In this document: positions 40,550 through 60,013 of the stretch, one piece after another
Numbering within the stretch: the stretch's first letter is position 1
Layout of the letters: the number at the start of each line of letters is the position of its first letter
From: Bdellovibrionota bacterium
GTDB taxonomy: Bacteria; Bdellovibrionota_C; UBA2361; JAFLCA01
DNA: 64,000 bases
NCBI GenBank assembly: GCA_041907145.1
Contig: JAYRHW010000189.1
Location: 3,624-67,623, forward strand
Direction of reading: 5' to 3'
Made by a program: the position numbers and the translations under genes
Notes under the pieces: model-generated
Database searches by the model: none
What the model saw: the letters and a program-made list of their open reading frames with translations, nothing else
What the model was told of the DNA's origin: nothing

Positions 40550-41220
40550 GCCTCATTCCCTCGCGCTAGGTTTTTCTGCGGGCAACGCGCCGGCACATCT
40601 TGAAATTGTATGATGGCATGCGCCAGTTCCTCGGCCTGACTAGGCCCTGAAGTTTTGAGGTGCCAGCTCGTCGGCAAGCGCTTCTCGAGGCGCACTGCCT
40701 CCTGTTGAATGAAGTCGCCAGCCTGATCGGTGGTTGCTAAGAGGACTGGACAACGAATCCGCTGAACATAAGGCTTGGAATCGAATCCGGGATCGCGATG
40801 CCGAAAGGGCAGCCCAAGGGGCAAGAACTTTTCCGCCGCATCAATCAGGCGAGAGTAGATCGTAGGATGCGCGCGCGAGGTAGCATCAACCAGCGCTAGC
40901 GTTCTAACGAGTTTCAATTCGGTGAGACAGAGATTCTGAACCAGAGCACCCGCAGCTCCGAACGCAACGAACGATGCCTGACGAATGTTCTTTGCGCGAA
41001 GCACCGTCAGCAACTCTGCACTAAGTATCTGCCAATTTTCAGCCGTAATTGGCGCGCACGCAAGTACCAGCACCTTCGACTTAGCGCTCATTCGCTGCGC
41101 TACGTCACTGGATAAGAGCTCATATGCGCTCTGCTCGCGAATAAGAACAAATGCACGCCCTGTGCCGACTTCAGAGACGGCAACAATAGAAGGAGAATTT
41201 GTAGATTCGTTAACTGCCAC
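40537..41220 (-). CDS. hypothetical protein, possibly degenerate alpha/beta-hydrolase fold
   Basis: 227-aa ORF convergent with the patatin gene. No clear nucleophile motif. Confidence 0.4.
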   Translation of the reverse strand: MAVNESTNSPSIVAVSEVGTGRAFVLIREQSAYELLSSDVAQRMSAKSKVLVLACAPITAENWQILSAELLTVLRAKNIRQASFVAFGAAGALVQNLCLTELKLVRTLALVDATSRAHPTIYSRLIDAAEKFLPLGLPFRHRDPGFDSKPYVQRIRCPVLLATTDQAGDFIQQEAVRLEKRLPTSWHLKTSGPSQAEELAHAIIQFQDVPARCPQKNLARGNEAQSA

Positions 41221-41447
41221 AGCAATTCCGCGCGGTATTAATAGCTCTCCGATGCACTAAGGCCGAACATTGAGACCACCGCAACTGCCCTTTGTCAATA
41301 GCACTAACTCGTGTGAATGGTGATTCTAATACTGTCGATTTGATAGCCAATTTCTTGCTTCCCCGTATTTGATCTAGGTTTTGAATTATGTAAAGTTAGT
41401 GGAAAGCGGCGAGGACTAGATTGTCCTTCGCCTCGAGTTGGAACCCC

Positions 41448-41777
41448 ATGATCGGAAAGCCGGGTCCTTTTCAAATTGTCGAAAGCGAAGGTTGCGGTCT
41501 CGTCGATGCCCCGATGAACGCCCCGCGCCGAAGATATTGTTGTTCAAATTACGCCACCTGTTTAGACCTAGCCGCTGCCCTCAATTGGGACAACTTCACC
41601 TGCCGCGGTTGCAGCGGAGAAATTGAAGAGACGCTCTACTGGAGAGCTCATCAGGCTAGCAAAAAAGATAATGTTGCTCGTACTATCTGCGATCTGCCCG
41701 GCATCAAGTACGTGGCCCCGGAGCCCTCAGGTACCTCCGTCGCGATGGAGCCCCTCAAGTTGGTGGTTAAGCGTTAG
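41448..41777 (+). CDS. small Cys-rich hypothetical protein
   Basis: Eight Cys in ~110 aa (CGLVD...RYCCSNYATCLD...FTCRGCSG). The track ORF starts at TTG 41421. An imperfect hairpin GGCGAGGAC-N6-GTCCTTCGCC sits immediately upstream of and overlapping the TTG. Confidence 0.4.
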   Translation: MIGKPGPFQIVESEGCGLVDAPMNAPRRRYCCSNYATCLDLAAALNWDNFTCRGCSGEIEETLYWRAHQASKKDNVARTICDLPGIKYVAPEPSGTSVAMEPLKLVVKR

Positions 41778-43768: not shown

Positions 43769-43774
43769 CTCTTG

Positions 43775-46700
43775 CTACCTCCTCGCTGCTCTAGACTTCG
43801 GTTTGGGGGTCGGCGCGACCTTCTTCTTGGATCCAGTACTCGAACTTCCGGACGAAGAATTGGGACGAACGCGGACCGCAAAGTGCAACCCACCGAGATC
43901 GGATTCCTTCTTGTCAAGATCCTCGGTCCATCCCACGTACGATACCGGCACCGAGGTTACTTCCAAGCGCCCGGTGGCTGATTCGCCAGAGAGCTCGATG
44001 CGGCAATAGTCGTCAGGGAGGATGCCGTTCCAGCGGAAGTTGCTATCAATACCGAAGGAGTAGCGGCCCATGGTCGCGCAGTTGGCGATGATCTTTATAT
44101 CGAAAGTCTTCAGTTGGCTCTTCTCGCTGGCCGACAGTTTACGTCCATTTTGGCTGCTCTTGAGTTCTCCGCCCATAAGGAAGGCCATCGGGGTCGGGGT
44201 AGCGCTCGGAATCGGACTCGGAGTCCAGGTCGGCGTGGCGGTTGGGGTATCGGTAGGATCCGGAGTTTCGCCAGGTTTTGGAGTCGCTGTCGAGGTCGGA
44301 GTTGCCGAAGGCGTCGCCGTTGCAGTTGGCTGCACGCACTGAGTTAAGCCTGATGCCTTGGTGTCATGGAGGCTGCCGAAGGCGTAAATGCGTACCGTAT
44401 TGGCACTATTGAAGTCGCGCGGAGTCTCAAAGGTAGTATCGCTATTTGCCGCAGCCACGAAGCTGCCACGGAAGTTAGTGGCGTACATATCCCAATCGAC
44501 CTGCACATTTGAATTGTTCGAATTACGGACGCGCCACATGAGCTTGGAACTTGGATCGTCGGAACATAGGGACGTCAAGCGCAAGAGGGCCGGCGAGGTC
44601 GGAGTCGCAGTCGGAGTTACTGTAGGTGTCCTTGTCGGAGTAGCAGTAGCCGTCGCAGTCGGAGTTCTGGTCGGAGTCGCCGAATTAGTAGCCGTTGGCG
44701 TACTCGTCGGAGTAAAGGTTGGTGACGGAGTTCTTGTCGGGGTCGCAGTGTTCGTCGGCATCGGCGTGCTCGTTGCCGTCGGAGAATTGGTTGCTGTCGG
44801 CGTACTTGTCGGGGCTACCGTCGGAGTAACGCAAGGACCCTCGTAGTCATACGGATGCTTGTCGAGGTGCTGCTCATGAGCTTTGCCCTTCGACATGCTC
44901 ATCGTTTGCGTGGATTCCGGATTACCGGGCGCTACGTGACAGAAGACTATCTCCCCGTCGTTCGTAGGTGTAGCGCTGGCGGTGGCTGTTACGGTCGGGG
45001 TGGTCGTAACCACCGGCGTCTTGGTCGGAGATGGTGTTACGGTAGGAGTTGCCGTATTTGTAGCCGTTGGGGTTCTCGTAGCCGTAGCAGTCGAAGTCGC
45101 CGTCGGAGTAATAGTCGCCGTCGCCGTGAATGTTGCTGTCGGCAAGGGCGTAGCAGTACTAGTAGCTGTCGGGGTTATCGTCGAAGTCGGAGTTCTCGTC
45201 GGAGTGGCAGTTACCGTAGCCGTATTTGTTGGGGTGGCGGTCCTCGTTGCCGTCGGAGTTACCGTTGAAGTCGACGTCACGGTCGGAGTTGGCGTCGCAG
45301 TACGAGTCGGCGTCGCAGTCGGGGTGTTCGTTGCTGTCGGAGTTGATGTCGGTGTTGGACCAACCTGAGCACTGGAACGGAAATTGAGATAGTAGAGGTC
45401 GCGTGCCGCAGTTCCAGTGTATTGGTCCGGCGTCATGGACGAATCCTGGTATTCAGCCGTAACGATGTACTCCGAGCCCTCCGGAACCGTGATGGAGTAG
45501 ATACCCTGCTCGTTCGTTTCAGTGCTGCGGGTCCGCTCGTCATAATTGAGAGTTATCTTGGCGCCTGGAATTTGATAGCCCCAGAAATCGAGCACCGTTC
45601 CGGATAACACGAAGCTGCGCACGTTTATTTCGCGGAAATCTATGTCGGGAGTGTCGCAGCGAATGTTCGGGATGGAAACCGCAGCCGGATCAAAATAGCG
45701 ATCATTATACTCAACTGACACCCAGTTATTTGCAATGGCAGGTGAAGTAAACTGATAGTGCCCCTGCTCATCCGTGTAGGTAACAACATCATGATTGTTG
45801 AGGATTGCCGCTTGTGAAATCGGCTGACCAGACTGATCGATCACTCGCCCGCTGACGACGTAGGAGTCCTGGACCGGGCAAATGGAACCCCGGGTCGGCA
45901 GCCGTGTTGATGGCACCGGCAAAACAGCGCGGAAATTGACTCCGGCGTATGCGCGCATCACGTCGACGAACGAAATTTGCAGCGGATCAAAAACCATATT
46001 GCCCGAAGCGACTCGTAGCGAATAGCTGCCGCCTTCATTAACGCTGAGGACGTATTCTCCGCGGGAATTCGTGGTGCCAACATTTACTTCGTTAAGATAG
46101 ACGGCAGCGCCGGGCTGAGGAAAGCCATCAGGGTTATAGACAACGCCGCTAATGCCCTGCTTCGGGGTTCCAGACTGTCCAGCTCGCGCGATGAATTCAC
46201 CGCTCGAGGCACTACTCGTGGCGCAAAAGCGGAAAGGTGTGGTGCTCACGTGATCAAGGGTGTAGCCAGACAGAGCACCGATCACGGGAACATAGTCATC
46301 TCGCTTGCCGCTGTTGTCGTCATTACAGAAAGTCTGCTGCTCGGCCGGAAAGTAAATCTTTCCGCTTTGATCCGTGATTTGCGATAGAGTCGGACCATCT
46401 TCGTACAAATCCGGTACGGTAATGCGAGCACCGCTCATGGGATCCGAGTTAGCGTCTAAGACCTGCCAAGCGACTGCGTTCTGCTTCACTCCGTTAGTGA
46501 CGGCATGAAATAGGATCTTGGTAGTGGGGCCTGTAGGTGTAAGCGCGATGCGCGGGGGCGAGAACTGAAAGTTTCCCTTCGGGACAAGATTGATAATGGT
46601 GTTCGGGGCGACGCCAAGCTGTGCGGTGGTAATCCTGAGATTTCCGCTGCCGTCAGTACTGCGGGCGGACTTCGTCAGCGCAGCCACTCCGGAATCTCCC

Positions 46701-47491
46701 AGGAACTCAACTCCCGCCACGCCCGCTCCCGTCGAACTCTCGACCCGGATTTGATAGGTAACCGACGAGCCGACTGACTGCGGTGCGACCGGTGCGCATG
46801 CGGCAGTAACATATCCGTTCACGACATTAGCGTTAGGACATACTTGATTGGCTGGAGTCGAGCGCGATGTGAAGATGCAATCTTGATTGCTCGGACTAAC
46901 TGCAAATGCAGTTACATAGTTGTTATCAAGATCGGCATCGCGATCGTTACAGACTGTCGCAAGACGAGGGACGGAGAAGAAAACAGCACCGTCCCGGTCG
47001 GTCACTCGTTGCGAAGGACCAAGCGCGTTCGGGCTAGTCACTGGAATGCCTTCCAATCCCCGACCAGTCGAATTCGCGACCACCCAGCGCACTACCGACG
47101 ATTGATTTCCGCTAAGCACTCTGACGTCGCAGTTGAATTGCGGACAATTTTCGCGACTTACGCGGAGTTCAGGGGGATCGAATGAGACATTTCTGGAAGG
47201 ATGATAGTAGGTCACCGTGGGGGTGGCCGAATCGAGATTCTCCGTGATAATTGACACCAGACCTGAACTGGAGCTGAACATAGCGGGCTGGCGGCTCACA
47301 CCGTAGTTACCGGTTACCGATATCCCGTCGAGCGGAAGGTCGGCATCTGAGTAAAAGCGGATTTTAAAGGTATCAGCGTGCGCAGGCTTTATGACGAGCA
47401 GCACAGCAACCGTAGCCAGCAAAAATGCACTGACGAACCGCGCAAGACGCAGGAGCTGACCGAGTGATGTACCGTGGGACTGTGACTGCAC
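43775..47491 (-). CDS. giant secreted/surface protein: N-terminal signal/anchor, multiple carboxypeptidase-regulatory-like (CarbopepD_reg-type) domains, >300 aa of Thr/Pro/Ala tandem repeats, basic C-terminal tail
   Basis: 1238 aa. Repeated G(V/R)V(I/Y).xxGxPxxGAxV...TDxxGxYxF-type units, then three TP-rich blocks (e.g. [57 protein letters not shown]...), and a C-terminal [17 protein letters not shown] tail. GTG start. Confidence 0.8.
44185..45365. repeat. coding low-complexity tandem repeat region (ACN/CCN codon repeats encoding Thr/Pro/Ala linker blocks)
   Basis: Visible degenerate periodic DNA (gtcggagt.gc.gt.. units) in three blocks. It produces spurious GV-rich ORFs on the opposite strand. 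Confidence 0.7.
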
Positions 47492-47741
47492 GCTGCTTTG
47501 TTCAAACTGCCGGGAGGCCTATTCCTCTCCGGTCACCCCAAGCCTTTCGTGCAATTTGCGCAAACCGTTGAGGTTCTGCGCCAGAAAATCTTGCCCCTTC
47601 AATAAGTTACGAAACTCCCCTACGCACTCCACCTAGGGCCGTACTACCAGTGCGATTGCCTCGGCTATATTGGCGTATATCCCTTAGTCCCGGCGCAGCC
47701 ACATTGGGGAGAAGAATCGGACTGGACCCGCCTGATTACGA

Positions 47742-50429
47742 CTAAGACCGAGGAGGCCCGCCTGTGGTGGCCTGATAGAGAGTATGGTGCAGGATTTCAA
47801 AGAGGCCCTTGGAGATATGAGGCGTCGAAATCAGTCGAGAAAGCGCTTGCTCCATGGCGGAGCGGCGAACGGGGTCCAATCGCATGAACCAGTGGAACGA
47901 CTTTGCCAACCCGGCCGCCACATTCGGATTGAATGCATCGACCTGCAAAATACGATCAGCGAAGAACGTGTACCCCTCACCCGATAATCGATGAAACTGC
48001 GGTAAATTGCCCGCAAACGTTCCATACAGGGAGCTTATCTTATTGGGATTCTTGGAATCGATGGCGGGGTTGCGTTCAAGCAACTTCACCACCTCAATCG
48101 CATCACCCGTGGGCACGGCCACTTGTGCATTTACCCACATGTCCATCACCACGGAATCCGCTCGCCACCGGTCATAGAAATGGGACAACGCCTGCCCTCT
48201 CTCCGGCCCGTCACCAAGAGCCAGGCACCTCAGTGCGGCGTAGGAGTCGGTCATATTATCCGCCGATCTGTATTGTTCAAATGCAGCCGCCACTGCCTCC
48301 GACTTCTCCTCGGAGACCAAATACCCCAAACAGACGTTCTTCAAAGACCTCCACCCCATTGAGTTCGAGTCCCGGCGATATATCCCGCCTAATCTCTTGC
48401 TTATGTCGCGATAGCTCCCCCAGAAGACTTCACGATTTCTACTCGTCAATGTCTGCAGGAAAAATCGTCGGGCAGCGAAGGCCGCGTCAAAGTCCGGGGT
48501 TTCAAGACTCATACACAATGAAAGCAAGCTCGGCATCATCAGGGCTTGAGCCCTCAATGCCGCATCAAATTTCTCATCCACCAACAGTCGCGCGAGAGCC
48601 TCGGAAACAGTAGTCGACACCTGAGGATCTCTTCCCTGCTTTATCGCGCTGTAAGCTTGCTGCAAACATCGAAGCCCCAGCCGCTGCCCGGCCTCATACC
48701 GATTGAAAGGATCACTGTCATGCGCAAGCAGAAACGCTAAGTCATCATCGCTGTAATCAAATTCAATCTTTACCGGAGCAGAAAAATTACGCAGCAGCGA
48801 TGGAACCGGCCTCTCCTTCAAACCCCTACACTCGACCGCAGCAGATTCGGCCCGCAGGTCGACATAGCTGCCTCGCTCGCTGAACTTTAGCCCTGGCACG
48901 GCATCAAGTTTTACATCCCGCCCCGCTGCATCGAGCAGTCCAATCCGTATCGGAATGACAAACGGCTTCACCTGCGCCTGGCCCTGTATCAACGGAGAAG
49001 ACTGAGAAAATTCCAGCCGATACCTGCCTGAAGCCGCGTCGAAAACTTCCCGAACCTTAACCACCGGAGTCCCAGCTTGAGAATACCAGAGTGCAAACTG
49101 CGAAAGGTCCTCTCCGCTCACGTCCTGCATGACCTGCAAGAAATCCTCGGTGCGTACAGCTTGTCCGTCAAAGCGGCGCAAATACTCTCGCACGGCCCGA
49201 TTGAAGACGCCTTCGCCGAGCAGTGTTTTCAACATTCCGATGACTTCGGCTCCCTTGCGATATACCGTCGAGGTATAGAAATTGTCGATTTCGATATACG
49301 ATTCGGGGCGAATCGGATGCGCATTGGGGCCCGCGTCCTCGAGAAATTGGCGCTCCCGCACAATTCGCACGTTCTTAATGCGCTCCACCGCGGCCGAATT
49401 CATGTCAGCCGAGAAATCCTGCTCACGGAGCACCGTAAGTCCTTCCTTGAGCGTAAGTTGAAACCAATTTCGCAGCGTAACCCTGTTGCCCGTATAGTTA
49501 TGGAAATACTCGTGGGCGATGACCGCTTCGATTTCAATATAGTCCTCATCACGAGCCGAGCTGGGGTCGGCCAAGACATACATGGCGTTAAAAATGTTCA
49601 ACCCCTTGTTCTCCATGGCGCCGGCATTGAAGTCATCGACAACAACAACGACATAAGTATCTAGGTCATACTCCAGTCCATAAACATCCTCGTCCCAGCG
49701 CATGGCTTTCTGCAGGGACTCCATGGCAAATCTGCAGCGCTCTTCATTGCCATGGCTGCAGTAAATCTGAAGCAGGATGGATCTCCCACTCTTGGTCACA
49801 AAACGATCTTCGATGACGCCCAAATCTCCAGCTACCAACGCAAACAAATAGCAAGGTTTTAGGAAGGGATCCTTGAACGTTGCTTCGTGCCTGCCGCCGG
49901 CCAGCACTCGCTGCGAGGTCTTGTTTCCGTTGCACAAAAGCACCGGATACTGTTTCTTGTCCGCCTCGATGGTAACCTCATAGGCCGTCATCACGTCCGG
50001 ACGATCAGGGAAGTAGGTCAAACATCGAAACCCCTCGGCCTCCATTTGGGTGCAAAGGATCCCCTTTGACTCGTAGAGGCCCAATCCCGATTTATTGTCT
50101 CGCGGCTTAATCGCCGTGACTATCGAGAGTTCTGCAGACTCGCCGATGTCCGGAATACTCAGCGATTCACGGCTCAGCACAAATTCTGTCTCGCGAAGCA
50201 GCCTGCCATTAACCGCGATGCTTCGAAGTTCGAGATTGCGGCCGTCGAGGCGCAGAGCTTCCCCGGACATTGCTGTGCCTCGCTTCAAGCTTAATGTCGA
50301 AGTTACGACCGTCTCTGCGGCTCGAATATCGACCTGCAGACGGATCGCCGGCACGAGATAGGCCGGTGGACGATAGTCACTCAGCAGTACTTGTTTTGGG
50401 GATTCCTGGTCCGAACTCATCGCAATCAT
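47742..50429 (-). CDS. pepN: aminopeptidase N (M1 family)
   Basis: GAMENKGLNIFN and HEYFHNYTGNRVT...E zinc-binding motifs. Start placed at the internal Met (MIAMSSDQ... / LLSDYRPPAY matches the PepN N-terminus). The track ORF extends to 50984. Confidence 0.9.
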   Translation of the reverse strand: MIAMSSDQESPKQVLLSDYRPPAYLVPAIRLQVDIRAAETVVTSTLSLKRGTAMSGEALRLDGRNLELRSIAVNGRLLRETEFVLSRESLSIPDIGESAELSIVTAIKPRDNKSGLGLYESKGILCTQMEAEGFRCLTYFPDRPDVMTAYEVTIEADKKQYPVLLCNGNKTSQRVLAGGRHEATFKDPFLKPCYLFALVAGDLGVIEDRFVTKSGRSILLQIYCSHGNEERCRFAMESLQKAMRWDEDVYGLEYDLDTYVVVVVDDFNAGAMENKGLNIFNAMYVLADPSSARDEDYIEIEAVIAHEYFHNYTGNRVTLRNWFQLTLKEGLTVLREQDFSADMNSAAVERIKNVRIVRERQFLEDAGPNAHPIRPESYIEIDNFYTSTVYRKGAEVIGMLKTLLGEGVFNRAVREYLRRFDGQAVRTEDFLQVMQDVSGEDLSQFALWYSQAGTPVVKVREVFDAASGRYRLEFSQSSPLIQGQAQVKPFVIPIRIGLLDAAGRDVKLDAVPGLKFSERGSYVDLRAESAAVECRGLKERPVPSLLRNFSAPVKIEFDYSDDDLAFLLAHDSDPFNRYEAGQRLGLRCLQQAYSAIKQGRDPQVSTTVSEALARLLVDEKFDAALRAQALMMPSLLSLCMSLETPDFDAAFAARRFFLQTLTSRNREVFWGSYRDISKRLGGIYRRDSNSMGWRSLKNVCLGYLVSEEKSEAVAAAFEQYRSADNMTDSYAALRCLALGDGPERGQALSHFYDRWRADSVVMDMWVNAQVAVPTGDAIEVVKLLERNPAIDSKNPNKISSLYGTFAGNLPQFHRLSGEGYTFFADRILQVDAFNPNVAAGLAKSFHWFMRLDPVRRSAMEQALSRLISTPHISKGLFEILHHTLYQATTGGPPRS

Positions 50430-50449: not shown

Positions 50450-51370
50450 CTATTTCGGATTTTCGCCTTTCATGCGCAGCCACACAAGGCCGCCGAGCAC
50501 GGCAAGAACGTAGGACTTGGCTCGCAATACTACGGCCACCCCAAGAGCTTGGGCCGGAGTTGCACCGATTCCATGCAAGAAGAAGTAGAACGCCCCCTCC
50601 TGAATACCCAGCCCATTCGGCGTAGCAGGAATCGACCCCACCAGTAAAATGATCGGCAGGACCACGAACAAATCCCAAACAGGAGGATGTTCCCACCCCA
50701 CTGCCTGGGCAGCAACTACGGTATTTACCACGGTGAGAGAGTGATAGAGAAAGGACAGTATCAGCGTTGTTCCCAAGAGACGAACATTCCCTCGCGCTAG
50801 CCGAAACCCGGATTGAACTTTGTGCATGCCCACGAGCACGGGCCGCAAAATGGCAAAACGCTCGAGAAGATGGGCCGGACGATCTGCCAAGGCAAGTACG
50901 GTGATAATGCCCAGACCCACGCCGACCAAGGCGATAGCAATACGTATCTCCACCGTCACATTGTCCACAAACCACATGAAGCACAAAGCCAAGAGCACCA
51001 TGGCCAAGAGGCCGGTGTAACGTTCAAGAATAGTCGCGGCCAGCGCCTCGTGTTGCCCAACTTTCTTGCCGATGTACCAACTGCGGACGATGTCTCCCCC
51101 GACATAGGACGGCATAAGCAAGTTCACGAAATAGCCGACCAGATATAAACCAAAGAGACGCACGAGCGAGACCGGCGCCTTGAGAAACTCGATGAACAAC
51201 TTCCACTTCAGCGCACTAACATAAATAAGGGCGATAGATAGCAAGGCCAGGCGCCCGATATCCCGCATCGAAAGGTCCTCAAGCGCGACAAGCAGCTCCT
51301 GGGGACTGACTAGATAGACAAGCCCAACCAAGATCGCCAGCGCAAATAACGTGCGAAGAACCTTCTTCAC
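50450..51370 (-). CDS. polytopic membrane protein, flippase-like / LPG-synthase-TM (UPF0104)-like candidate
   Basis: 306 aa with ~8 hydrophobic helices. 4-nt overlap with the upstream GT-C gene. Family assignment is by gestalt only. Confidence 0.55.
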   Translation of the reverse strand: MKKVLRTLFALAILVGLVYLVSPQELLVALEDLSMRDIGRLALLSIALIYVSALKWKLFIEFLKAPVSLVRLFGLYLVGYFVNLLMPSYVGGDIVRSWYIGKKVGQHEALAATILERYTGLLAMVLLALCFMWFVDNVTVEIRIAIALVGVGLGIITVLALADRPAHLLERFAILRPVLVGMHKVQSGFRLARGNVRLLGTTLILSFLYHSLTVVNTVVAAQAVGWEHPPVWDLFVVLPIILLVGSIPATPNGLGIQEGAFYFFLHGIGATPAQALGVAVVLRAKSYVLAVLGGLVWLRMKGENPK

Positions 51371-53394
51371 TTGAGCACCTCAACCTCTGCTATCGACCAG
51401 TCGAAAATCGGCTGCGTTCCCATTTGTCTCAAAATGATGCGCTGAATATCCGCCGATGCGAAGGTGAACAGCATGGACGTCGCATCGTCCCGAGCGTAGC
51501 GGACCGCTTCCCAGTCGTCGGGATCAAGGAGTACGCGCTTGTTCCCGTTCCGCAGCACGAGATCTATCCCTAAGTCCCGCGGCTGATCATGCACCCAAGT
51601 GCCCAGCTCATACCGGACGCCGCGAATCGTCTCGCCAGCAGCGATATCGATACGATACTCCATGCCAGGACGCTGTGGAGCCGCCGAACCCCAGCGAGTG
51701 CCTGGATTACCGTCCACCCCGAGCAGGACGGCGGTCTGTCCATCTGTCGCTGACGGGGTAAGCAACTTGCTCTCGAGGGGAACAAGAGACAACTCGCTGG
51801 GATGCAGGTCATAGAGCACTTCATAATTGGAAACCAATACGGATTGGTACCGCAGGCCCTCTAGGTCGAAGGCCCGTCTCACGACTCTAGCCTGCGATGG
51901 AACCAATACTAACGGTAAATAGCTCTTGCCTCGAATTCCCGCATCGCGCTCATAGTCGCGAATGCGAACGTCCTTGGGCTCATGAAAAATCGCGAATCGC
52001 ACTCGCTCCTTTGTCTCGAACGCCAGCCGATACCCGATCCAATAGTTAGTTCGCACAAAATCGATTCCAGCCTTCTCGAGAAAGCCAATCAACTCACGGT
52101 GATCTTTGGAAACCCTTTCCCCTTCATAAATGAATGGCTCTCCCGGCAGGGCCCTGCCGCCCAAGTACCAAGACGAGACATTCAATAGCAGAACTCCGCA
52201 AGTCAAAGCCCCAGCTAGAATTCGACTACGCAAGGCGAGCAACGAGATTGCACAGGCACTAAGCACGAAAATAGAGACATAAGCCGGCAGCAAGTACCGC
52301 GGAGACTGTACGAGCGAGCCAAAGGAGCTGGTGACAAATACTGCGACGATAGTCATGAGCAAGAGCATGAAGAGCTCTACCGGATCACGGCGGCTAATCT
52401 GAAAGGCACACAAGGCCTTGAGCCCAAATCGCCGCTTCCATAACAAATACACGAGAAGAAGGCCGTACAGTCCAAACGCGGCCTGGGAAGCTCCGGGGAA
52501 AACATCTTCCTTGTGCCACTGACGCCGTGCTCCGAGGAGCATCGGCAAAGAGGTGCTCAGTAATCCCTCCGTATGCTCGGAAACTGCAGAAACATCCGAG
52601 GCTTTGACAATCTCGAACGAAACAAAATGATGTCGAAGATTATAGATCCAAAACGGTGCGCCGCCGATGAGAAATGCAACTGCTGCTGCCAGAGAATGGC
52701 GAAGCAAAGACTTGAACAAATCCGGGAGCGAATGTCTGTTCGCTGAGTACAACGATGTCGCTATACAAAAGGCAGAAGGCAAAATGAAATACAGAATTTG
52801 ATTGTTTACCCACCAGCCGAGGCCCAAAAACGCGGCGATCGCGGCAGTTTGCAACTCCGTGGGTCGCGAGGTGCGGAGCCAGCGCAGCAGGAGTACGATC
52901 GAGAAGCCGCCGATACACAGGATTTCCATGTACCCTCCGCGCGCCATCGAGCTCCACAGCACCAGAAGCTGGGGAGGCAAAGCTGCAAACAAAGCTGCCA
53001 GCCTTGCAACGCCTCTGCTGCCCAGCTCCAGACCTATCTGATAGAGCAGCACGACAAACAGCAACGAACACACAAGCGGGACGACCTTAAGCGCCACCGA
53101 GGAAATTCCCACGACGGCAAATAGGCCTGCCGCGAAGAAGGCTTCAAGGCTGCCCATGTAGTGCTGCCCGTAATAGAAAATCGGGAAATCCCTGCCTTCG
53201 AGAATATGCTTGGCCATGAGGCCGACGATGGCCTCATCGGAGTCTATAACGAAGCGGTTAGCGAATAGGAAATCCAGCCGCAGCAGCAGTCCTGCCAGCA
53301 GAATCAGCGTCAGAAATATTCGATCATGCTTTAGCAAGAAATTCGGTAGCACAACGAGAGCTGCTTCAGAGGATGATTTGCTGCCTGACGGCAT
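51367..53394 (-). CDS. GT-C fold membrane glycosyltransferase (GT39/GT83 PMT_2/ArnT-like) with C-terminal discoidin (F5/8 type C) domain
   Basis: The N-terminal first-loop motif VIDSDEAIVGLMAKHILEG...FYYGQHYMGSLEAF is followed by ~11 TM helices. The C-terminus LLGVDGNPGTRWGSAAPQRPGMEYRIDIAAGETIRGVRYELGTW matches the discoidin DGxxxTxW...W.vDLG pattern. Confidence 0.65.
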   Translation of the reverse strand: MPSGSKSSSEAALVVLPNFLLKHDRIFLTLILLAGLLLRLDFLFANRFVIDSDEAIVGLMAKHILEGRDFPIFYYGQHYMGSLEAFFAAGLFAVVGISSVALKVVPLVCSLLFVVLLYQIGLELGSRGVARLAALFAALPPQLLVLWSSMARGGYMEILCIGGFSIVLLLRWLRTSRPTELQTAAIAAFLGLGWWVNNQILYFILPSAFCIATSLYSANRHSLPDLFKSLLRHSLAAAVAFLIGGAPFWIYNLRHHFVSFEIVKASDVSAVSEHTEGLLSTSLPMLLGARRQWHKEDVFPGASQAAFGLYGLLLVYLLWKRRFGLKALCAFQISRRDPVELFMLLLMTIVAVFVTSSFGSLVQSPRYLLPAYVSIFVLSACAISLLALRSRILAGALTCGVLLLNVSSWYLGGRALPGEPFIYEGERVSKDHRELIGFLEKAGIDFVRTNYWIGYRLAFETKERVRFAIFHEPKDVRIRDYERDAGIRGKSYLPLVLVPSQARVVRRAFDLEGLRYQSVLVSNYEVLYDLHPSELSLVPLESKLLTPSATDGQTAVLLGVDGNPGTRWGSAAPQRPGMEYRIDIAAGETIRGVRYELGTWVHDQPRDLGIDLVLRNGNKRVLLDPDDWEAVRYARDDATSMLFTFASADIQRIILRQMGTQPIFDWSIAEVEVLK

Positions 53395-53396
53395 CG

Positions 53397-54584
53397 CTAC
53401 GCTCCCTGCGCTTGGGCCGCAAGGCGTTCGTAGGCGGCGAGCGTTTGCTCGCCGGTCTTACTCCAGGTGAAAAGCTTCGCTTGCTCAGGGCCCCGTGATT
53501 TCAATCGCTGAGAGAGCTCCGAAGTATGCAGAACGGCAAACAATTCACGCGCAGCCTGTTCAAAGTCATTCGGATCCACCATGAGTGCCGCATCACCCAG
53601 GACCTCCGGCATACTCGAAGTCCCAGAACTTACGACCGGGGCTCCGGCCGCCATCGCTTCGAGAGGTGGCAGTCCGAACCCCTCATACAAGCTCGGGAAG
53701 AAAAACACCGCACAAGTAGCATAAAGCTGCAAAAGGTCCGAATCGTCTACGAATCCCGGAGTCACCACATCCGCTTCCAAGCCGAGTACCTTTATCAGGT
53801 GCTCGACCTTAGTATACTGGGCATCGGATTGAATGTTGCCGGCCATGAGCAGTACAGGAGCGATTTGCCCCTGCTCGATGCTCATGCACTTTAGAATACT
53901 AAACGTGTGCAATAATCCAGCCGCATTTTTACGCTGATCAATTCCTCCGACGTACAGAACCAGGGGCCGGCCTGATGGAATCCGATACCGGGATAACAAT
54001 GGCTGCAAATCGCGCGGCGCCTGGGCGTCGAAAAACTTCCGGTCAACGCCCAAGTGTGTGACGACTATTCTGTCTTCCGGCACCCCCAACATTCTGTGCA
54101 CATCGCGTGCGGTGTTATGGCTGATTGCAACGATGAGCGAAGCATTCTTGATCGCCTGCATCTCCAAGAATCTGGCGAACGCAAAACGCCAGGTAGGCTT
54201 GTCGGCTTTATAGAGATCTTTGAGCACCAGGGGAATAAGATCGAGCACCGTTAGAATGTAGCGCTTTGGACTCCAAGCCGGCGCATCCATATGCGCCGGA
54301 AAGTGCACCGCATCAAATTGGCTTAGCGCCCCCTTCCTGAGCCGCAATGGATACAAGATTTGCTGGCTTAAGGTGCGTTTGCCGGCCGGAAGCGCATCAA
54401 TACACCGCAGTGCGAGAGAAGGCTCCTTGAAGGCAGTTTGATCGAAGGACCCCACTTGCAAGCCGGCCCCGGAGTACCCCTTCAGGTAGCGGTGCAGCTC
54501 TTGCACGTAGCGTCCGATTCCGCGCAATGCGTGATTCTTAAAGCTCGTGTCGAGCGCGCTGGTGTCCAGTCCGATCGAGTACAT
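53397..54584 (-). CDS. glycosyltransferase family 4 (GT-B)
   Basis: E-x7-E motif region [27 protein letters not shown]. Confidence 0.85.
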
Positions 54585-54591
54585 AGAATAT

Positions 54592-55689
54592 TTAACTACC
54601 CGTGGCGGATTTTGCCGACCGGCGCCGAATAGATTGCGCGAGGAGACCTTGCACCTGCTCCGAGAATTTCTCGACCGACAGCTCTGACGCTCGCTGCTTG
54701 CCTGCCTCGATCATTCGGGTACGCAGCTTAGCATCTGAGTACACTCGAAACATCAATTCCGCAATCTCAGGGTGCTTCTTCTCCTTTACGAGTATGCCGC
54801 CAGCTCCAATCGTCTGAGGCAGAGCTGACGAAGCGAACGAAATAACGGGAAGTCCGAAGTGCATGGCCTCGATGACCGGCAAGCAGAAGCCCTCATGCTC
54901 GCTCATACACAGATACATGCTGGCAGCCTGATACAGGGATTTCAATTCGCTATCGTCGCGTTGACCTATAAAATGCACGCTCTCGTCGATGCCAAGCTGC
55001 TGAACGAGTCGCTTAAGTCCGAATGAATACACCTCGGTATCGATGTCAATGCCTACCAGCCATAATTTCGAGGTCTGGTGAATATGTTTCTGCAGAAAGT
55101 AGAAGCACTTGATTATATCCTCGACGCACTTATTTGGCGCGAATCGTCCGACATGCAGCACATGCAACGAAGGATCGCTCTGCAGCAGCGATAATATACC
55201 CGGATTAGCCGGCACTGACCATTTCTCTGAGTCGATGGGGAGCTCGAGCACACTGGCATCGAATCCCAACGTTTTATGTTCTCCCGCATTGAATGCCGAG
55301 TCAGCGATAAGTAAGTCGCTAAGTCTGCAGAGTTCGGGCAATTCCCGCAGTCCCCGCTCGATGTCGGCCGCGATGCGAGGATTAGTCGAGCGAAACCAGT
55401 GTGCAGGGGTCAAGTTATGATATATCAACGCTCGACCAACGGTACTAAGACCACGATAGAGATCATTGAGCGGGGAGCCCAGCGAGTAATGGAGAATCAC
55501 CTCACCCGAAAAGGCCTGCGGAAAGTCACGCACATCTCGCGCTTGTGACTTGTACTTAGGGTGAACGTTAATTGCGAAAATCTCCGAACTGATCCCCATC
55601 TGCTGGAGGCAGCGGCGCAGCGCCAGCACCTCGCCTGAAATGGCGTCCCCGTAACTGAGTGTATGTACCAGCTGGTGAACTTCTCGCAT
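54592..55689 (-). CDS. glycosyltransferase family 4 (GT-B)
   Basis: MSEHEGFCLPVIEAMHFGLPVISFASSALPQTIG motif region. Confidence 0.85.
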   Translation of the reverse strand: MREVHQLVHTLSYGDAISGEVLALRRCLQQMGISSEIFAINVHPKYKSQARDVRDFPQAFSGEVILHYSLGSPLNDLYRGLSTVGRALIYHNLTPAHWFRSTNPRIAADIERGLRELPELCRLSDLLIADSAFNAGEHKTLGFDASVLELPIDSEKWSVPANPGILSLLQSDPSLHVLHVGRFAPNKCVEDIIKCFYFLQKHIHQTSKLWLVGIDIDTEVYSFGLKRLVQQLGIDESVHFIGQRDDSELKSLYQAASMYLCMSEHEGFCLPVIEAMHFGLPVISFASSALPQTIGAGGILVKEKKHPEIAELMFRVYSDAKLRTRMIEAGKQRASELSVEKFSEQVQGLLAQSIRRRSAKSATGS

Positions 55690-55698
55690 GGCCGAACG

Positions 55699-56478
55699 TT
55701 ATAACAACTCTGCAAAGCTGTCGCGGAACCGGCTGTACACCATGTTCCCGAGCACCAGGGCTACCCCGGCCCAGGCCATCAGATACGCCCAGGAATAGAA
55801 GGCAGGCACCACCCCATCCAGAACAAGGCTATGGTACATCATGAGCAACCCCGCGAAAGGGTTAATATCGAGAGTAAATCGAAAGGCTTGCGGCACGTTA
55901 CTGGCGGGATACACGACTGGGCAGAGGAAAAACAGCAGAGTTAGAAAATTACCCAGAATATGCTGCACGTCTCGGAACTGCACGTTGAGCGCCGAAAGAC
56001 AGAGTCCGGCGCCATAGAGCAGCAGCGCCTGCAGCACTATGCAGAACGGCAGCAGCAGTAGACTGGAATGAAACGGCATATGCGCGGCATACATGAAGAC
56101 AGCCAACAGGGGTAGTGACAACAAAAAATTTACCATGGTCGTGATGACAGCAACGAAGGGCAGTATATGCGCCGGAAACATCGATTTGGTAATGAGATGT
56201 CCGCTCGATACGATCGACGAGGTAGACTCCGAAAGTCCGCTCGTGGTCCATATCCAGGGTAGCAGTCCGCAAAAAAGAAAAATGGTGTAGTTCTCGACGC
56301 TGTTGAAGCGAAGGTAGAATTGAAAGACCAGGGTGTACACGAGCATCAAGCAGAGCGGGTTCAAGAACGACCATAAAAATCCCAGCGCCGAACCGCGGTA
56401 GCGCATGGCCAGATGCCGACCAACGAGCGCGCCAATCAGCGCACGAAATTTCCAGAGTTCACGTATGCTCTCAAGCAC
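55699..56478 (-). CDS. wzm: ABC-2 type polysaccharide export permease (Wzm-like)
   Basis: ELWKFRALIGALVGRHLAMRYRGSALGFLWSFLNP is the Wzm N-terminal signature, with six TM helices. Likely start is GTG at 56478 (GGGAGAG RBS, 4 nt after the wzt stop). The track ORF extends to 56640, overlapping wzt. Confidence 0.8.
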   Translation of the reverse strand: MLESIRELWKFRALIGALVGRHLAMRYRGSALGFLWSFLNPLCLMLVYTLVFQFYLRFNSVENYTIFLFCGLLPWIWTTSGLSESTSSIVSSGHLITKSMFPAHILPFVAVITTMVNFLLSLPLLAVFMYAAHMPFHSSLLLLPFCIVLQALLLYGAGLCLSALNVQFRDVQHILGNFLTLLFFLCPVVYPASNVPQAFRFTLDINPFAGLLMMYHSLVLDGVVPAFYSWAYLMAWAGVALVLGNMVYSRFRDSFAELL

Positions 56479-56482
56479 AATA

Positions 56483-57814
56483 TTACTCTCCCGCCTTGAG
56501 CTGCAAAATCTTTCCGTCGAGCAGCCACTGATGCGCTGGTGCGAATACGCCGATATCCTTATGCGTGGACCGCACGACAAAGGACACCGCTGCCTTGTGG
56601 TAGTCAAAGGGATATCCATCGTCCCGGTGCACCGCCACATCCAGCGTGTAGGATCCTTCCAAAAGGCCTATTCGTGGGAGCTTGATGGTAAGCCGCCCTG
56701 ATTTTTCCAACCGCGGCAAGCTTAGGCGCTCGAGATCGGTATTCGTCCCGTACACGACCAGTCCATCGGCGCGATTAATGGCGATGCCAAATACGCAGCT
56801 GGGAACCTGCTCGTTTACCAAATATCGGAGCTCGATCCCGCAAGCATCTTCGGTGTGGAACAGGTGCCGGGCCTCGCCCTTCTCATCCACCAAGCTCACC
56901 GAATCGATAACTACCTCTCGGCTTCCCCAACGCGCTGCCTCTGTCTTGGGCTCGGATTCGGCTATCGGATGGCTCTGTGCTTCATGACGTTCAAGTTCGG
57001 CTTCCTCTCCTCGCTCGATGAACTGCCGGTAATGATCGATGACACGCCGCGGGTCGCCGCGATCTCTAACAATTCCCTCATGCAGCCATACGGCTTCATC
57101 GCACCAGCGCTCAACGGCATCGAGGTCATGCGTCACCAATAGAAGAGTTTTCCCCTCCTTGCGGAGCCGCGCGATGCGCTCCTTGCACTTGCTGACGAAC
57201 GCGGCATCGCCGACAGCCAGCACTTCATCGACGATCAAGACATCGGGATCGGTATGAACGGCCAAACTAAAGCCGAGCCTCATGAACATACCCGAAGAAT
57301 AGGTCCGCACCGGATCGTCTATTACCGCTTCCAGTTCAGCGAAGGAGACTATTTCATCAAATCGCTCATCAATTTGCGCACGCGTGAGCCCGTGCATGAC
57401 GCCGCCCAGGTATAAGTTCTCCCTCCCCGTAAAATCGGGATGAAAACCGGCACCCAATTCGATCAACGCTGCCACCCTGCCGTGAAGCTGCACCCGGCCG
57501 GCGTCCGGCTTGTAAATGCCGCTGATGAGTTTGAGCAGCGTGGATTTACCGGAGCCGTTGCGGCCGATGATTCCTACGGAAGCTCCCTGGGGGATACGAA
57601 TGGTGAGATCTTGAATCGCTCTCGTGATATTGCCTTCTGGCGCAGCCTTGGGGAAAGCAAACCGGAGCAGAGACGATTTGAGCGTCGTGTACCCGCCCTT
57701 GAGAGTCTGGCGACGAAAGGACTTGCTTAGGTCAACTATCTCCAGCGCGTAGCGTATTCCCTCAGCCTTTGCCGACGGCGATTGAACTACTGCTGCGGCT
57801 GTCGCGGTCTGCAC
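56483..57814 (-). CDS. wzt: ABC transporter ATP-binding protein Wzt-like with C-terminal carbohydrate-binding extension
   Basis: Walker A GRNGSGKSTLLKLISG, signature YSSGMFMRLGF, Walker B LIVDEVLAVGD, plus a ~180-aa C-terminal beta-rich domain. Confidence 0.85.
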   Translation of the reverse strand: MQTATAAAVVQSPSAKAEGIRYALEIVDLSKSFRRQTLKGGYTTLKSSLLRFAFPKAAPEGNITRAIQDLTIRIPQGASVGIIGRNGSGKSTLLKLISGIYKPDAGRVQLHGRVAALIELGAGFHPDFTGRENLYLGGVMHGLTRAQIDERFDEIVSFAELEAVIDDPVRTYSSGMFMRLGFSLAVHTDPDVLIVDEVLAVGDAAFVSKCKERIARLRKEGKTLLLVTHDLDAVERWCDEAVWLHEGIVRDRGDPRRVIDHYRQFIERGEEAELERHEAQSHPIAESEPKTEAARWGSREVVIDSVSLVDEKGEARHLFHTEDACGIELRYLVNEQVPSCVFGIAINRADGLVVYGTNTDLERLSLPRLEKSGRLTIKLPRIGLLEGSYTLDVAVHRDDGYPFDYHKAAVSFVVRSTHKDIGVFAPAHQWLLDGKILQLKAGE

Positions 57815-57817
57815 GTA

Positions 57818-58366
57818 TTAGCTCTGTTGAATAATGTAAATGGAAGGGAGATTACGCCAACGATTACAATCTTCCATGCCATATCCGACCATCCACTCGG
57901 GTCCCTTATACTCGAAGGCTGCCCATTCAGGATTGAAGGTCTCCTCTTCGAGGACGCGCTTTATCAATACAGCCGAGCGAACCTTGAGCGCGCCTGCGTC
58001 ATAAAATGCCTTCGTAAGCAGCTTCAGTGTCTTGCCGGAATCACAGATGTCATCCACGAGCAGCACGGAACGGCCACGCACGTGCACATCCTCCATACTT
58101 ACCCGCGCCTCGGTTCGCTGCACGTTGTTATCACCGCTTTCATAGACCCAGGTACGCACCGGGGCGATCTCTACGGAAGACTGAATCTGTCGAACGAGAT
58201 CAGCGAAGAAGAAAATCCCGCCTCTAAGCACTGGAATGGTTACCAGGTCGGTATGCGAATCCTGCCAGACGGCATTCGCCCAGGCGCTAATATCCTCGCC
58301 TAGCCGCTTCACCTGCGATTCGATTTGCTGAGGGGTATATTGCAGCTTGAAGTTCGAAGGAATCAT
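57818..58366 (-). CDS. hpt: hypoxanthine-guanine phosphoribosyltransferase
   Basis: PRPP-binding motif VLLVDDICDSGKTL. Length 182 aa. Confidence 0.85.
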   Translation of the reverse strand: MIPSNFKLQYTPQQIESQVKRLGEDISAWANAVWQDSHTDLVTIPVLRGGIFFFADLVRQIQSSVEIAPVRTWVYESGDNNVQRTEARVSMEDVHVRGRSVLLVDDICDSGKTLKLLTKAFYDAGALKVRSAVLIKRVLEEETFNPEWAAFEYKGPEWMVGYGMEDCNRWRNLPSIYIIQQS

Positions 58367-58553: not shown

Positions 58554-58946
58554 ATGCGCATCGGGAAACTCTTGGTAATTGGCGGACTGCTGCTGGAACT
58601 GTCCGGGTGCGGCTCCGGTGATGGGCGCGAGCCTGGCATTATCCGTGACATCAAGCATTTTTTTCGCAGCACGAGTAATACCATAGAGGGATACACTCCT
58701 AGTCGCGACCAGATCTCGGCAACCGCGACAAAGCAATTTCAGGATATGTTTACATTCGAGTACCGAGTAGTAGAGGTTGACAATGCTGTGACTGCGGAGC
58801 AACTGGAGCGAAAGCTCGCCGAGCTTGGGCAGGATCGCTGGGAATGCACGCAACTTCTCGAGCGCGGATCCTCTTATATGATTCCTTGCCGGCGCCGTCC
58901 CATAAGTCTGCTCCGATATGCGCTTAGATTTTTGCCGATCCCATAA
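58554..58946 (+). CDS. lipoprotein, DUF4177-like
   Basis: Lipobox LLELSGC after a signal sequence, and a C-terminal EYRVVEVD...LERKLAELGQDRWECTQLL pattern. GGAGAGGAAAGA RBS. Its stop overlaps the next gene's ATG as TAATG. Confidence 0.55.
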   Translation: MRIGKLLVIGGLLLELSGCGSGDGREPGIIRDIKHFFRSTSNTIEGYTPSRDQISATATKQFQDMFTFEYRVVEVDNAVTAEQLERKLAELGQDRWECTQLLERGSSYMIPCRRRPISLLRYALRFLPIP

Positions 58947-60013
58947 TGCGATATCTGTTGTTCACTTTTCTCCTGACTCTGTCGGCCTGCGCGTCGCAGC
59001 GCCCGTTGCTGCCTCCCGGGGAAGTGCCCGAGCAAACTGAAGTCGCCTCGGATGATGAGCAGTACGGACAAGCGGTCTTGAATCAACTCATGGATCGCTA
59101 CGAGCTGGACACCGATGATACTCGCATCAATAGAGTGCGCGATATAGCTCAGCGACTGACGGAGACAAAGAACCCCAACAGCAATCCTTGGCATATTTAC
59201 GTGCTAAAGGATCCGGATTTCAAGAATGCCGCGGCTACCCGCGGCAATTATATTTTCGTCTGGACCGGGATCCTAGAGACCGTCAGAGATGATGATGAAC
59301 TCGCGACGATCTTGGCTCATGAAATTGGCCACGTCCTTGCAGGTCACACCTTGCCCGATCCTTCGGAGGAAGTGAGCAGCATGATAGCCGGCATCGCCGG
59401 AACGGCCACCGGGCAGGTGCTTTCAGCTCAGGGCGCCGTAGGCATTTTAGCCAGCCTCGCGGATTCCTTAGTTCGCTCGACGATGGAAGCGGTGTTGGTT
59501 AATCCCGACTTAAAGCGAAAAGAGCTGGAAGCCGATCAGGTGGGGCTCTTCTTAATGGCTGAAGCGGGATTCGATCCCGAAAGAGCAGTGAGTTTTTGGG
59601 AACGCATAAAGGATGACCCCGATTTCGGAGGATTTCCGATTGCATTTCTTTCTTCGCACCCCTCCTCCGAGGATCGCTTCCTCAGGCTCCAACAGCTTTT
59701 GCCTGAAGCTGAAGAAGTTTATCACGGTAAACGCAAGGACTCGCGCTTCATTGCAGACCCAGGGCGCAGCGATTTCGTTCTATCACAGCGGGAGGTCTCT
59801 GCGCGTAAAGAAACCTGGGTTGTGCTGGAACCCACGGCTGCGGTGATGGACGCGCCCAAAGCCGAAGCTAAGCGCGTTGGGACTTTGAAAGTTGGGGCCA
59901 AGGTAACCGTGGTCGGCCACCGCGGACCCTGGCTAGAAATTTCCGAGCCCTCGCAAGGCTTCGTCAAGGGAACTGACCTTGCTCCATTTAAGACCGATAG
60001 TTTTGCGCGTTAG
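58946..60013 (+). CDS. M48-family zinc metalloprotease lipoprotein with C-terminal SH3b-like domain
   Basis: Lipobox LTLSAC; HEIGHVLAGH zinc motif; C-terminus VGTLKVGAKVTVVGHRGPWLEISEPSQGFVKGTDL is SH3_3-like. Confidence 0.8.
   Translation: MRYLLFTFLLTLSACASQRPLLPPGEVPEQTEVASDDEQYGQAVLNQLMDRYELDTDDTRINRVRDIAQRLTETKNPNSNPWHIYVLKDPDFKNAAATRGNYIFVWTGILETVRDDDELATILAHEIGHVLAGHTLPDPSEEVSSMIAGIAGTATGQVLSAQGAVGILASLADSLVRSTMEAVLVNPDLKRKELEADQVGLFLMAEAGFDPERAVSFWERIKDDPDFGGFPIAFLSSHPSSEDRFLRLQQLLPEAEEVYHGKRKDSRFIADPGRSDFVLSQREVSARKETWVVLEPTAAVMDAPKAEAKRVGTLKVGAKVTVVGHRGPWLEISEPSQGFVKGTDLAPFKTDSFAR

Follow-up and report, generated by a model that had tools for sequence, protein, structure and literature searches.

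What does a glycan operon make when it encodes, beside a polysaccharide exporter, a membrane glycosyltransferase (GT) of the type predicted to work outside the cytoplasm? This question is raised by positions 50450-58366 of a 64-kb stretch of DNA from a Bdellovibrionota bacterium (hereafter the window), where seven co-directional open reading frames (ORFs) lie on the minus strand. An initial annotation had read the locus as a protein O-glycosylation system that modifies Thr/Pro-rich (TP-rich) secreted proteins encoded 3 kb away. The analysis described here supports a glycan-assembly operon and does not support a protein-glycosylation system tied to those proteins. The best explanation, which is offered tentatively and stops short of being called probable, is that the operon makes a conserved cell-envelope glycan by an ATP-binding cassette (ABC) transporter-dependent route and that this glycan is finished outside the cytoplasm.

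The seven ORFs and their coordinates were confirmed (Table 1). Gene families were assigned by profile searches of the window proteins against Pfam and NCBIfam, using curated cut-offs where stated. In this way six of the seven ORFs could be assigned, the exception being a protein of 675 amino acids (aa). The annotated exporter, whose ATPase carries a carbohydrate-binding extension, was upheld (ABC2_membrane, ABC_tran, and Wzt_C at E 9e-29), as was the pair of GT4 transferases (Glycos_transf_1 in both, E ~1e-30). The description of the spacing, with gaps of 0-10 nt and several 4-nt overlaps, was correct as to its tightness but not as to the overlaps: the gaps from hpt through the GT-C gene are 3, 4, 9, 7, and 2 nt, hence 2-9 nt, and the only overlap is one of 4 nt between the GT-C and flippase genes. 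As listed, the wzm ORF is too long. Its corrected start is a GTG at 56478, 4 nt past the wzt stop and preceded by a GGAGAG ribosome-binding site, and this is also where the tblastn matches begin in 54 loci. A promoter and terminator scan of the locus stretch found sites no commoner than in shuffled sequence, and Rfam and tRNA scans of the window returned no match.

Two features by which a Wzm/Wzt-dependent pathway is recognized are present: the permease and ATPase genes are adjacent, and two GT4-type genes directly follow wzm. In the wzt translation, the Walker A (GRNGSGKST), signature (YSSGM), and Walker B (LIVDE) motifs are readable, and the best NCBIfam matches are teichoic-acid and galactan exporter ATPases, all under their cut-offs. 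The permease shows weak NCBIfam matches to Wzm/RfbD and KpsM. Pfam recognizes only the C-terminal domain of GT4a, the closest solved sequences of which are MshA/BshA-type GT4 enzymes. In GT4b both Rossmann domains are recognized, and the closest solved sequences are MshA, GlgM, and PimA.

Because the 675-aa protein has neither a Pfam match of its own nor a sequence relative in the PDB, its assignment as a GT-C enzyme with a discoidin module required independent proof. Searched alone, the protein matches no Pfam model at E<=10 except for a faint F5/8-C match, and a single-sequence search against PDB sequences gave spurious matches only. Looked up by its exact sequence, the window protein returned no contig. 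Its architecture comprises about 11 transmembrane (TM) helices (residues 20-410), a small periplasmic alpha/beta domain (420-532), and a CBM32/discoidin carbohydrate-binding module (CBM; 545-675). At least 893 homologues exist, originating from Bdellovibrionota- or Oligoflexia-labelled metagenome-assembled genomes (MAGs) and from metagenomes; the best 120 are full-length and 41-59% identical. Homology results were read among the best 120-150 matches, which are filled by orthologues from within the lineage. Three acidic residues of the first extracytoplasmic loop, D51, D53, and E54, do not vary among 40 aligned homologues, and neither do some 70 other positions. At E<=0.01, 23 of these 40 match PMT_2 and 30 match F5_F8_type_C; none matches PMT (PF02366) or PMT_4TMC (PF16192), and the window protein matches neither of the latter two at E<=10. 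Searched against the PDB, a profile of the family finds CBM32/F5-8C structures at E 2e-7 for the C-terminal module, no GT-C chain, and no ArnT chain at E<=10.

Structural comparison provides the remaining evidence. An AlphaFold2 model of the protein (predicted local distance difference test score, pLDDT, 91; predicted template-modelling score, pTM, 0.86) contains membrane helices up to residue ~410 and a beta-sandwich at 545-675. A Foldseek search of the PDB returned STT3, PglB, AglB, ArnT, AftD, Pmt4, and EmbA/B/C at E 1e-6 to 1e-4. The query-normalized template-modelling (TM-) scores to GT-C structures are 0.31-0.47, the best target-normalized ones are those of ArnT (0.55-0.58) and Pmt4 (0.57), and the C-terminus matches galactose-binding CBM32 modules with a target-normalized score of ~0.7. 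Together, the family-level Pfam matches, the CBM32 profile match, and the modelled fold bear out the GT-C/discoidin call. The PMT-like specificity attached to it is not supported, since the family has no PF02366 or PMT_4TMC match and the model resembles oligosaccharyltransferases (OSTs), ArnT, AftD, Pmt4, and Emb about equally, with no specific affinity to PMT. The D53-E54 pair (and D51) fits the PMT loop-1 D-E motif, which is shared with ArnT-type enzymes and so does not discriminate. The OST motif WW[DE][YWF]G (WWDYG) is absent from all 40 homologues. The N-terminus weakly matches TIGR03663 (Agl23; E 1.8e-5, 24 bits against a cut-off of 126); there is no NCBIfam match to the ArnT family, and no arn genes lie nearby. 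The GT-C protein belongs to a distinct subfamily that is barely detected by current Pfam and NCBIfam models.

The last gene of the operon encodes a flippase-like protein, as annotated, which scores above the cut-offs of both PF03706 (146.5 bits, cut-off 33.4) and TIGR00374, 'flippase-like' (75.1 bits, cut-off 43.2). It has no aminoacyl-phosphatidylglycerol synthase domain and is consequently not MprF itself. Its family is LPG_synthase_TM/UPF0104 and not GtrA, SMR, Wzx, or MATE, although the same role may apply. UPF0104-type proteins are widespread and occur fused to various lipid enzymes (bioRxiv 10.1101/2022.03.11.483950).

The arrangement of these genes is conserved across the lineage. A scan with one genome per species returned 114 relatives, of which 80 loci were kept, all from uncultured Bdellovibrionota-type MAGs, and the seven window proteins were mapped to them by tblastn. 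Gene order upstream of the GT-C gene was counted in the 50 loci with at least 5.6 kb of upstream sequence, and the flippase gene in the 57 loci whose downstream flank spans 3 kb or more. The complete order hpt-wzt-wzm-GT4a-GT4b-GTC, on the same strand, is found in 37 of the 50 loci; a further seven lack only hpt, so that the block from wzt through the GT-C gene is kept in 44. Of the remainder, two retain the GT4 genes only and four have a lone GT-C gene. Among the 57 loci, the flippase gene directly adjoins the GT-C gene in 33 and is separated from it by one gene in 5, which makes 38 where it is adjacent or nearly so; it lies farther away in 3 and is absent in 16. Median protein identities range from 41% (GT-C) to 60% (Wzt, 53 loci), with 54% for GT4a (59 loci); GT4b was found in 65 loci. 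This arrangement is far beyond chance, as the order recurs in dozens of species-level genomes. The G+C content of the locus (0.54-0.55) equals that of the window, and there is therefore no island signature. The locus is a core operon for an envelope glycan and has been inherited vertically, unlike the hypervariable islands that encode O-antigens and capsules. The protein-glycosylation proposal had presupposed a locus other than a conserved glycan cluster, and a conserved envelope-glycan cluster is what the synteny reveals.

Two variations of the locus were also seen. In L006 (= L001), L039, L041, and L053, a GT-C homologue (38-45% identity) stands alone, the wzt, wzm, GT4, and flippase genes all being absent within 10 kb of it; the operon may be divisible, or these genes may be paralogues. 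In L021 and L065, a gene for an MgtE-like magnesium transporter (CBS-domain-like and TM regions, recognized by eye) is inserted in the operon, independently and at a different position in each of the two genomes.

In the preferred explanation, assembly of the envelope glycan would proceed in five steps. A lipid carrier would be primed by an enzyme encoded elsewhere in the genome. GT4a and GT4b would then build a glycan from nucleotide sugars at the cytoplasmic face, as their family membership suggests. The lipid-linked glycan would be exported by Wzm/Wzt, and the Wzt_C domain of the ATPase, by analogy with E. coli O9a-type systems, would bind the glycan and gate its export. In the periplasm, the GT-C enzyme may hold the exported glycan through CBM32 and add to it a sugar from a lipid-phosphate-linked donor, with D51, D53, and E54 as the presumed catalytic residues. 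Finally, flipping by the MprF-type protein could supply the outer leaflet with that lipid-linked donor or with an acceptor lipid. No final ligase (WaaL) is encoded in the 64-kb window.

Such a combination had been considered possibly undescribed, but this claim falls because it is established in outline by work on Citrobacter youngae O1/O2, where an ABC-dependent polymer, a periplasmic CBM-bearing GT-C enzyme, and a flippase are known to work together (PMC11127046). In C. youngae, Wzm, a CBM-bearing Wzt, and GT4 adaptor enzymes make the O-polysaccharide (Kelly et al. 2024, PNAS, PMC11127046). The GT-C enzyme, ORF12 (652 aa, 11 TM helices; catalytic residues D31, E34, H106, and R349), is the founding member of GT136, and its C-terminal CBM binds the unmodified polymer after export. 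The pentofuranose donor is made by a polyprenyl-phosphoribose synthase and delivered by a MATE flippase, and the authors relate the system to mycobacterial arabinan assembly and to Gtr-type systems (PMC11127046). The window operon shares with it a Wzt with a CBM, monofunctional GT4 enzymes, a GT-C enzyme of ~650 aa with ~11 TM helices and a C-terminal beta-rich CBM, and an adjacent flippase gene, a likeness drawn from the published description. The differences are equally clear: the C. youngae locus encodes a UbiA-type donor synthase (with a HAD phosphatase domain) and a WbdD-like terminator, neither of which is in the window operon; its flippase is of the MATE type, whereas the one here is of the MprF/UPF0104 type; and it is a serotype-specific O-antigen cluster, whereas the operon here is conserved throughout a lineage. 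Compared with three-component Gtr- and GT136-type systems in general, the GT-C enzyme is present here, but a linked donor synthase and a GtrA, SMR, Wzx, or MATE flippase are not. The same logic of export followed by GT-C action is established for streptococcal rhamnose polysaccharides.

A second parallel is provided by mycobacterial arabinogalactan and lipoarabinomannan (LAM). These are also conserved, lineage-defining envelope glycans in which a cytoplasmic polymer, exported by an ABC-2 transporter, is elaborated outside by CBM-bearing GT-C enzymes (EmbA/B/C, AftD), and AftD and Emb are among the fold matches of the protein studied here. In contrast, the mycobacterial enzymes are far larger and carry several CBMs, their donor pathway (decaprenyl-phosphoryl arabinose, DPA) is known and partly linked, and they serve a Gram-positive-type envelope without an MprF-type flippase. 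A third parallel concerns the flippase. UPF0104/MprF-like proteins were predicted to be flippases for lipid-linked sugars on the basis of an archaeal neighbourhood containing PMT/STT3-like proteins and AglD-type GT2 enzymes (Makarova et al. 2015, PMC5898192). In the archaeal AglD module, as in Agl22/Agl23 of Haloarcula, a UPF0104/MprF-type protein is paired with a GT-C-like protein; however, the archaeal module contains a GT2 enzyme, a dolichol-phosphate hexose synthase, and acts in the N-glycosylation of proteins, whereas here there is no GT2 enzyme and the partners are Wzm/Wzt and GT4 enzymes. To our knowledge, the pairing of an MprF-type flippase with a GT-C enzyme has not yet been demonstrated in bacteria. 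The general logic of the pathway is already established, and no long-standing question is opened. The distinguishing features of the locus are its lineage-wide conservation, an unclassified GT-C enzyme bearing CBM32, an MprF-type flippase partner, and the lack of a linked donor synthase.

Several observations weigh against an envelope glycan finished in this manner. A polyprenyl-phosphate sugar synthase of the GT2 type was not found in the 64-kb window; a tblastn search with an ArnC query gave no match there and one in the 80 related loci (1.33 Mb), 9 kb from the GT-C gene, this search being directed at the GT2 (ArnC) type and not specifically at UbiA-type synthases. Neither the operon nor the window contains a WbdD-like chain terminator or an initiating transferase of the WecA/WbaP type. 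The experimental support for the flippase family concerns glycerolipids (MprF), with a genetic association with glycolipids (gpgSDF) and none with polyprenyl-phosphate sugars. In six related loci, a PlsC/AGPAT-type acyltransferase (PF01553, ~390-510 aa, with C-terminal TM helices) is encoded directly after the GT-C gene, which hints at a glycerolipid substrate; in five of the six it lies between the GT-C and flippase genes, and one of the genomes is the complete CP129486.1. No such gene is present in the window. Finally, unrelated genes (those for an M48 peptidase and a patatin) are syntenic as well, so that conserved order by itself overstates functional coupling.

A particular hybrid form of the pathway has also been considered, in which a GT4-built chain is exported by Wzm/Wzt and then elongated or ligated in the periplasm by the unclassified CBM32-bearing GT-C enzyme, fed by the MprF-type flippase, to yield an invariant, lineage-defining surface lipoglycan or 'common antigen'. 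This form is rather unlikely. If true, it would be a Gram-negative counterpart of the logic of mycobacterial arabinogalactan and LAM, and the first bacterial case of an MprF-type flippase serving a GT-C enzyme. If the broader model of an exported and externally finished glycan holds, the operon specifies an envelope glycan conserved in a widespread lineage of uncultured Bdellovibrionota from freshwater and wastewater. This glycan might mark the lineage or be a determinant of phage or prey recognition, and the repertoire of extracytoplasmic glycosylation would gain a new GT-C subfamily as well as an MprF-type flippase as a bacterial partner of GT-C enzymes.

Two alternatives are retained because the donor synthase is unlinked, no terminator or initiating enzyme is encoded, the known substrates of the flippase family are glycerolipids, and the acyltransferase occurs in six species. 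The first is a lipoglycan on a glycerolipid anchor, following the logic of phosphatidylinositol mannosides, lipomannan, and LAM or of group-2 capsules. The GT4 enzymes would glycosylate a glycerolipid, the MprF-type protein would flip the glycolipid, and the GT-C enzyme would extend it or attach the polymer exported by Wzm/Wzt. Operons that combine a GT4 enzyme with a UPF0104 flippase, namely gpgSDF in P. aeruginosa and hexSDF in C. difficile, are known to make flipped glycolipids (PMC12713373), and the same pairing is encoded here. Unlike the present operon, however, they include a deacetylase, have neither an exporter nor a GT-C enzyme, and yield a monoglycosylated membrane lipid rather than a polymer. 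GT4b weakly matches models of GlcNAc-PG synthase (E 1e-12) and of the lipoteichoic acid (LTA)-anchor GT4 (1e-9), far under their cut-offs; such GT4 matches are generic and all stay below the family cut-offs. The acyltransferase beside the GT-C gene, the lack of a linked polyprenyl-phosphate sugar synthase, and the weak KpsM likeness of wzm also favour a lipid anchor. Against this, neither the window nor the majority of loci have the acyltransferase, exporters with a Wzt_C domain typically serve O-polysaccharides linked to undecaprenyl diphosphate, and the operon contains no lipid-synthesis gene such as one for a CDP-alcohol phosphatidyltransferase. On balance, the lipoglycan is an unlikely product.

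The second alternative is that the GT-C enzyme is an en-bloc transferase resembling a ligase or an OST, which transfers the exported lipid-diphosphate-linked polymer, held by CBM32, to lipid A-core, another lipid, peptidoglycan, or proteins. The best Foldseek E-values do belong to the OSTs STT3, PglB, and AglB, no synthase for a monosaccharide donor is linked, and the operon would be self-sufficient except for the initiating enzyme. However, the TM-scores to OSTs (0.38-0.47) are no better than those to ArnT and Pmt4 (0.43-0.47 query-normalized, 0.55-0.58 target-normalized), the WWDYG motif is missing as noted above, and PglB and AglB have a far larger periplasmic domain. An en-bloc transfer would also leave the flippase-like protein without a clear role, and this alternative is quite unlikely.

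Weaker still is the original proposal, in which Thr/Pro-rich linkers in two neighbouring secreted proteins, the 1238-aa protein and the S8 protease, are O-glycosylated by a PMT-like enzyme. The enzyme does resemble PMT (GT39) in its GT-C fold, in the acidic D-E pair of loop 1, and in having Pmt4 among its fold matches, and the TP-rich genes follow pepN on the same strand in this genome. Unlike PMT, however, neither the window protein nor its 40 homologues match the PMT and PMT_4TMC models, a MIR domain is lacking, and the enzyme carries a glycan-binding C-terminal CBM32 and is locked to a polysaccharide exporter, together with GT4 enzymes, in 44 of 50 genomes. The neighbourhood is equally unfavourable. 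The most likely pepN start lies 20 nt after the flippase stop, and pepN fills the 3 kb between the operon and the TP-repeat gene. The TP-rich stretches of the 1238-aa protein total ~279 aa and not the more than 300 aa claimed, and the linker of the S8 protease measures ~44 aa. About 30 related genomes have, within 0.6-0.8 kb past the flippase gene, a small Cys-rich ORF on the opposite strand and the gene for a 227-aa protein, and after these a patatin-like gene. Since in the window these conserved neighbours sit beyond the S8 gene, displaced by 8.6 kb, the pepN/TP/S8 block (41792-50429, 8.6 kb) is an insertion. Apart from the window, L004 and L005 alone have pepN downstream of the operon, and L004, the nearest relative, alone has the TP-repeat protein beside it. 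Of 81 loci, 5 have TP-rich ORFs no more than 10 kb from the GT-C gene, a figure that, without a genome-wide baseline, is not readable as enrichment. On this comparative evidence, the block appears to be a recent, lineage-specific insertion that lies outside the conserved system and is functionally unrelated to it, and the postulated tie to the TP-rich proteins is very improbable.

Least credible of all is an ArnT-like addition of a single sugar to lipid A or the lipopolysaccharide (LPS) core, of which the mannose substitution reported for Bdellovibrio lipid A would be an example: ArnT gives the best target-normalized TM-scores, the PMT_2 family takes in ArnT-like enzymes, and kdsB lies beside the locus in L073, but the protein has no ArnT NCBIfam match, arn-type donor genes are lacking, and a polymer is indicated as the acceptor both by CBM32 and by the strict association with Wzm/Wzt and the two GT4 genes.

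The hpt gene, which heads the operon 3 nt before wzt, requires separate consideration. It lies upstream of wzt in 37 of the 44 wzt-bearing loci. Its product scores 92.8 bits against the HGPRTase model TIGR01203, under the cut-off of 150, but aligns end to end with solved hypoxanthine phosphoribosyltransferases (HPRTs; 8cag, 1g9s) and keeps both the phosphoribosyl pyrophosphate (PRPP) motif LLVDDICDSGKTL and the C-terminal MVGYG...RNLP motif. A role as a PRPP-dependent enzyme supplying a ribosyl donor, by analogy with PRPP-based ribofuranose pathways, was considered and rejected as the leading view because of this full-length HPRT alignment, the retained motifs, and the presence of unrelated neighbours that are equally syntenic. 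The synteny of unrelated genes likewise weakens a functional reading of the conservation of hpt. Most likely, hpt encodes a genuine purine-salvage enzyme, not a glycan enzyme, that rides in the same transcript.

The remaining neighbours are listed in Table 1. The gene for the M48 peptidase, which has a C-terminal SH3 domain, is divergent from hpt and is kept upstream in about 34 loci. The apparent 580-bp gap 5' of hpt holds a gene for a small lipoprotein (MRIGKLLVIGGLLLELSGC...), the stop of which overlaps the start of the peptidase gene; its conservation was seen in a six-locus DNA alignment only.

Table 1. Coordinates of the operon genes, of their neighbours, and of further features in the window and in related loci (positions prefixed by L refer to the numbered locus).
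Feature	Position	Strand	Assignment or remark
hpt, hypoxanthine/guanine phosphoribosyltransferase-like	57818-58366	-	Pribosyltran E 8.6e-16; first gene of the operon
wzt, ABC-transporter ATPase with C-terminal Wzt_C	56483-57814	-	ABC_tran E 2e-20; Wzt_C E 9e-29, residues ~293-424
wzm, ABC-2 type permease	55699-56478	-	ABC2_membrane E 6.7e-16
GT4a, GT-B fold, GT4-type glycosyltransferase	54592-55689	-	Glycos_transf_1 E 5e-30
GT4b, GT-B fold, GT4-type glycosyltransferase	53397-54584	-	Glycos_transf_1 E 1.6e-29; Glyco_transf_4 E 4.5e-12
GT-C fold membrane glycosyltransferase, 675 aa	51367-53394	-	AlphaFold2 fold and family profile; no Pfam model of its own
LPG_synthase_TM / UPF0104 / 'PplT' membrane protein (MprF flippase domain)	50450-51370	-	PF03706 E 1.5e-42
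pepN	~47742-50429	-	Peptidase_M1
1238-aa TP-repeat protein	43775-47491	-	CarboxypepD_reg
S8 protease	41792-43768	-	Peptidase_S8
Small Cys-rich ORF	41421-41777	+	motif ...RRYxCxNYxTCLDLAAALNW..FTC..C...
227-aa protein	40537-41220	-	
Patatin-like lipase	39362-40549	+	
Small lipoprotein	58554-58946	+	
M48 peptidase	58946-60013	+	
Multihaem cytochrome, 1227 aa	60094-63777	-	Cytochrome_C7/c3
Flagellin-like protein, 635 aa	8045-9952	-	by eye
Two pilin-like proteins, 331 and 613 aa	35412-38257	-	by eye
Acyltransferase genes of related loci	L009:5917-7173, L062:8498-9754, L012:11851-13146, L021:9747-11018, L015:3470-4993, L052:11890-13062		
MgtE-like insertions in related loci	L021:6264-7523, L065:5021-6370		

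Several other features were noted in passing. The kdsB gene adjoining the locus in L073 suggests that the lineage probably makes LPS. Near one end of the window is a gene for a secreted multihaem cytochrome with many CxxCH motifs and C-terminal LVIVD beta-propeller repeats, which is an unusual fusion. Recognized by eye, the flagellin-like protein has flagellin-type termini flanking a Ser/Thr/Gly-rich centre of ~400 aa (a 'giant flagellin'). The two pilin-like proteins, the 331-aa one having a prepilin-type N-terminus, resemble type IV pilus minor pilins or PilX-PilY-like proteins, again by eye, and L033 and L012 encode homologues of the pilin-like proteins downstream of the GT-C gene.

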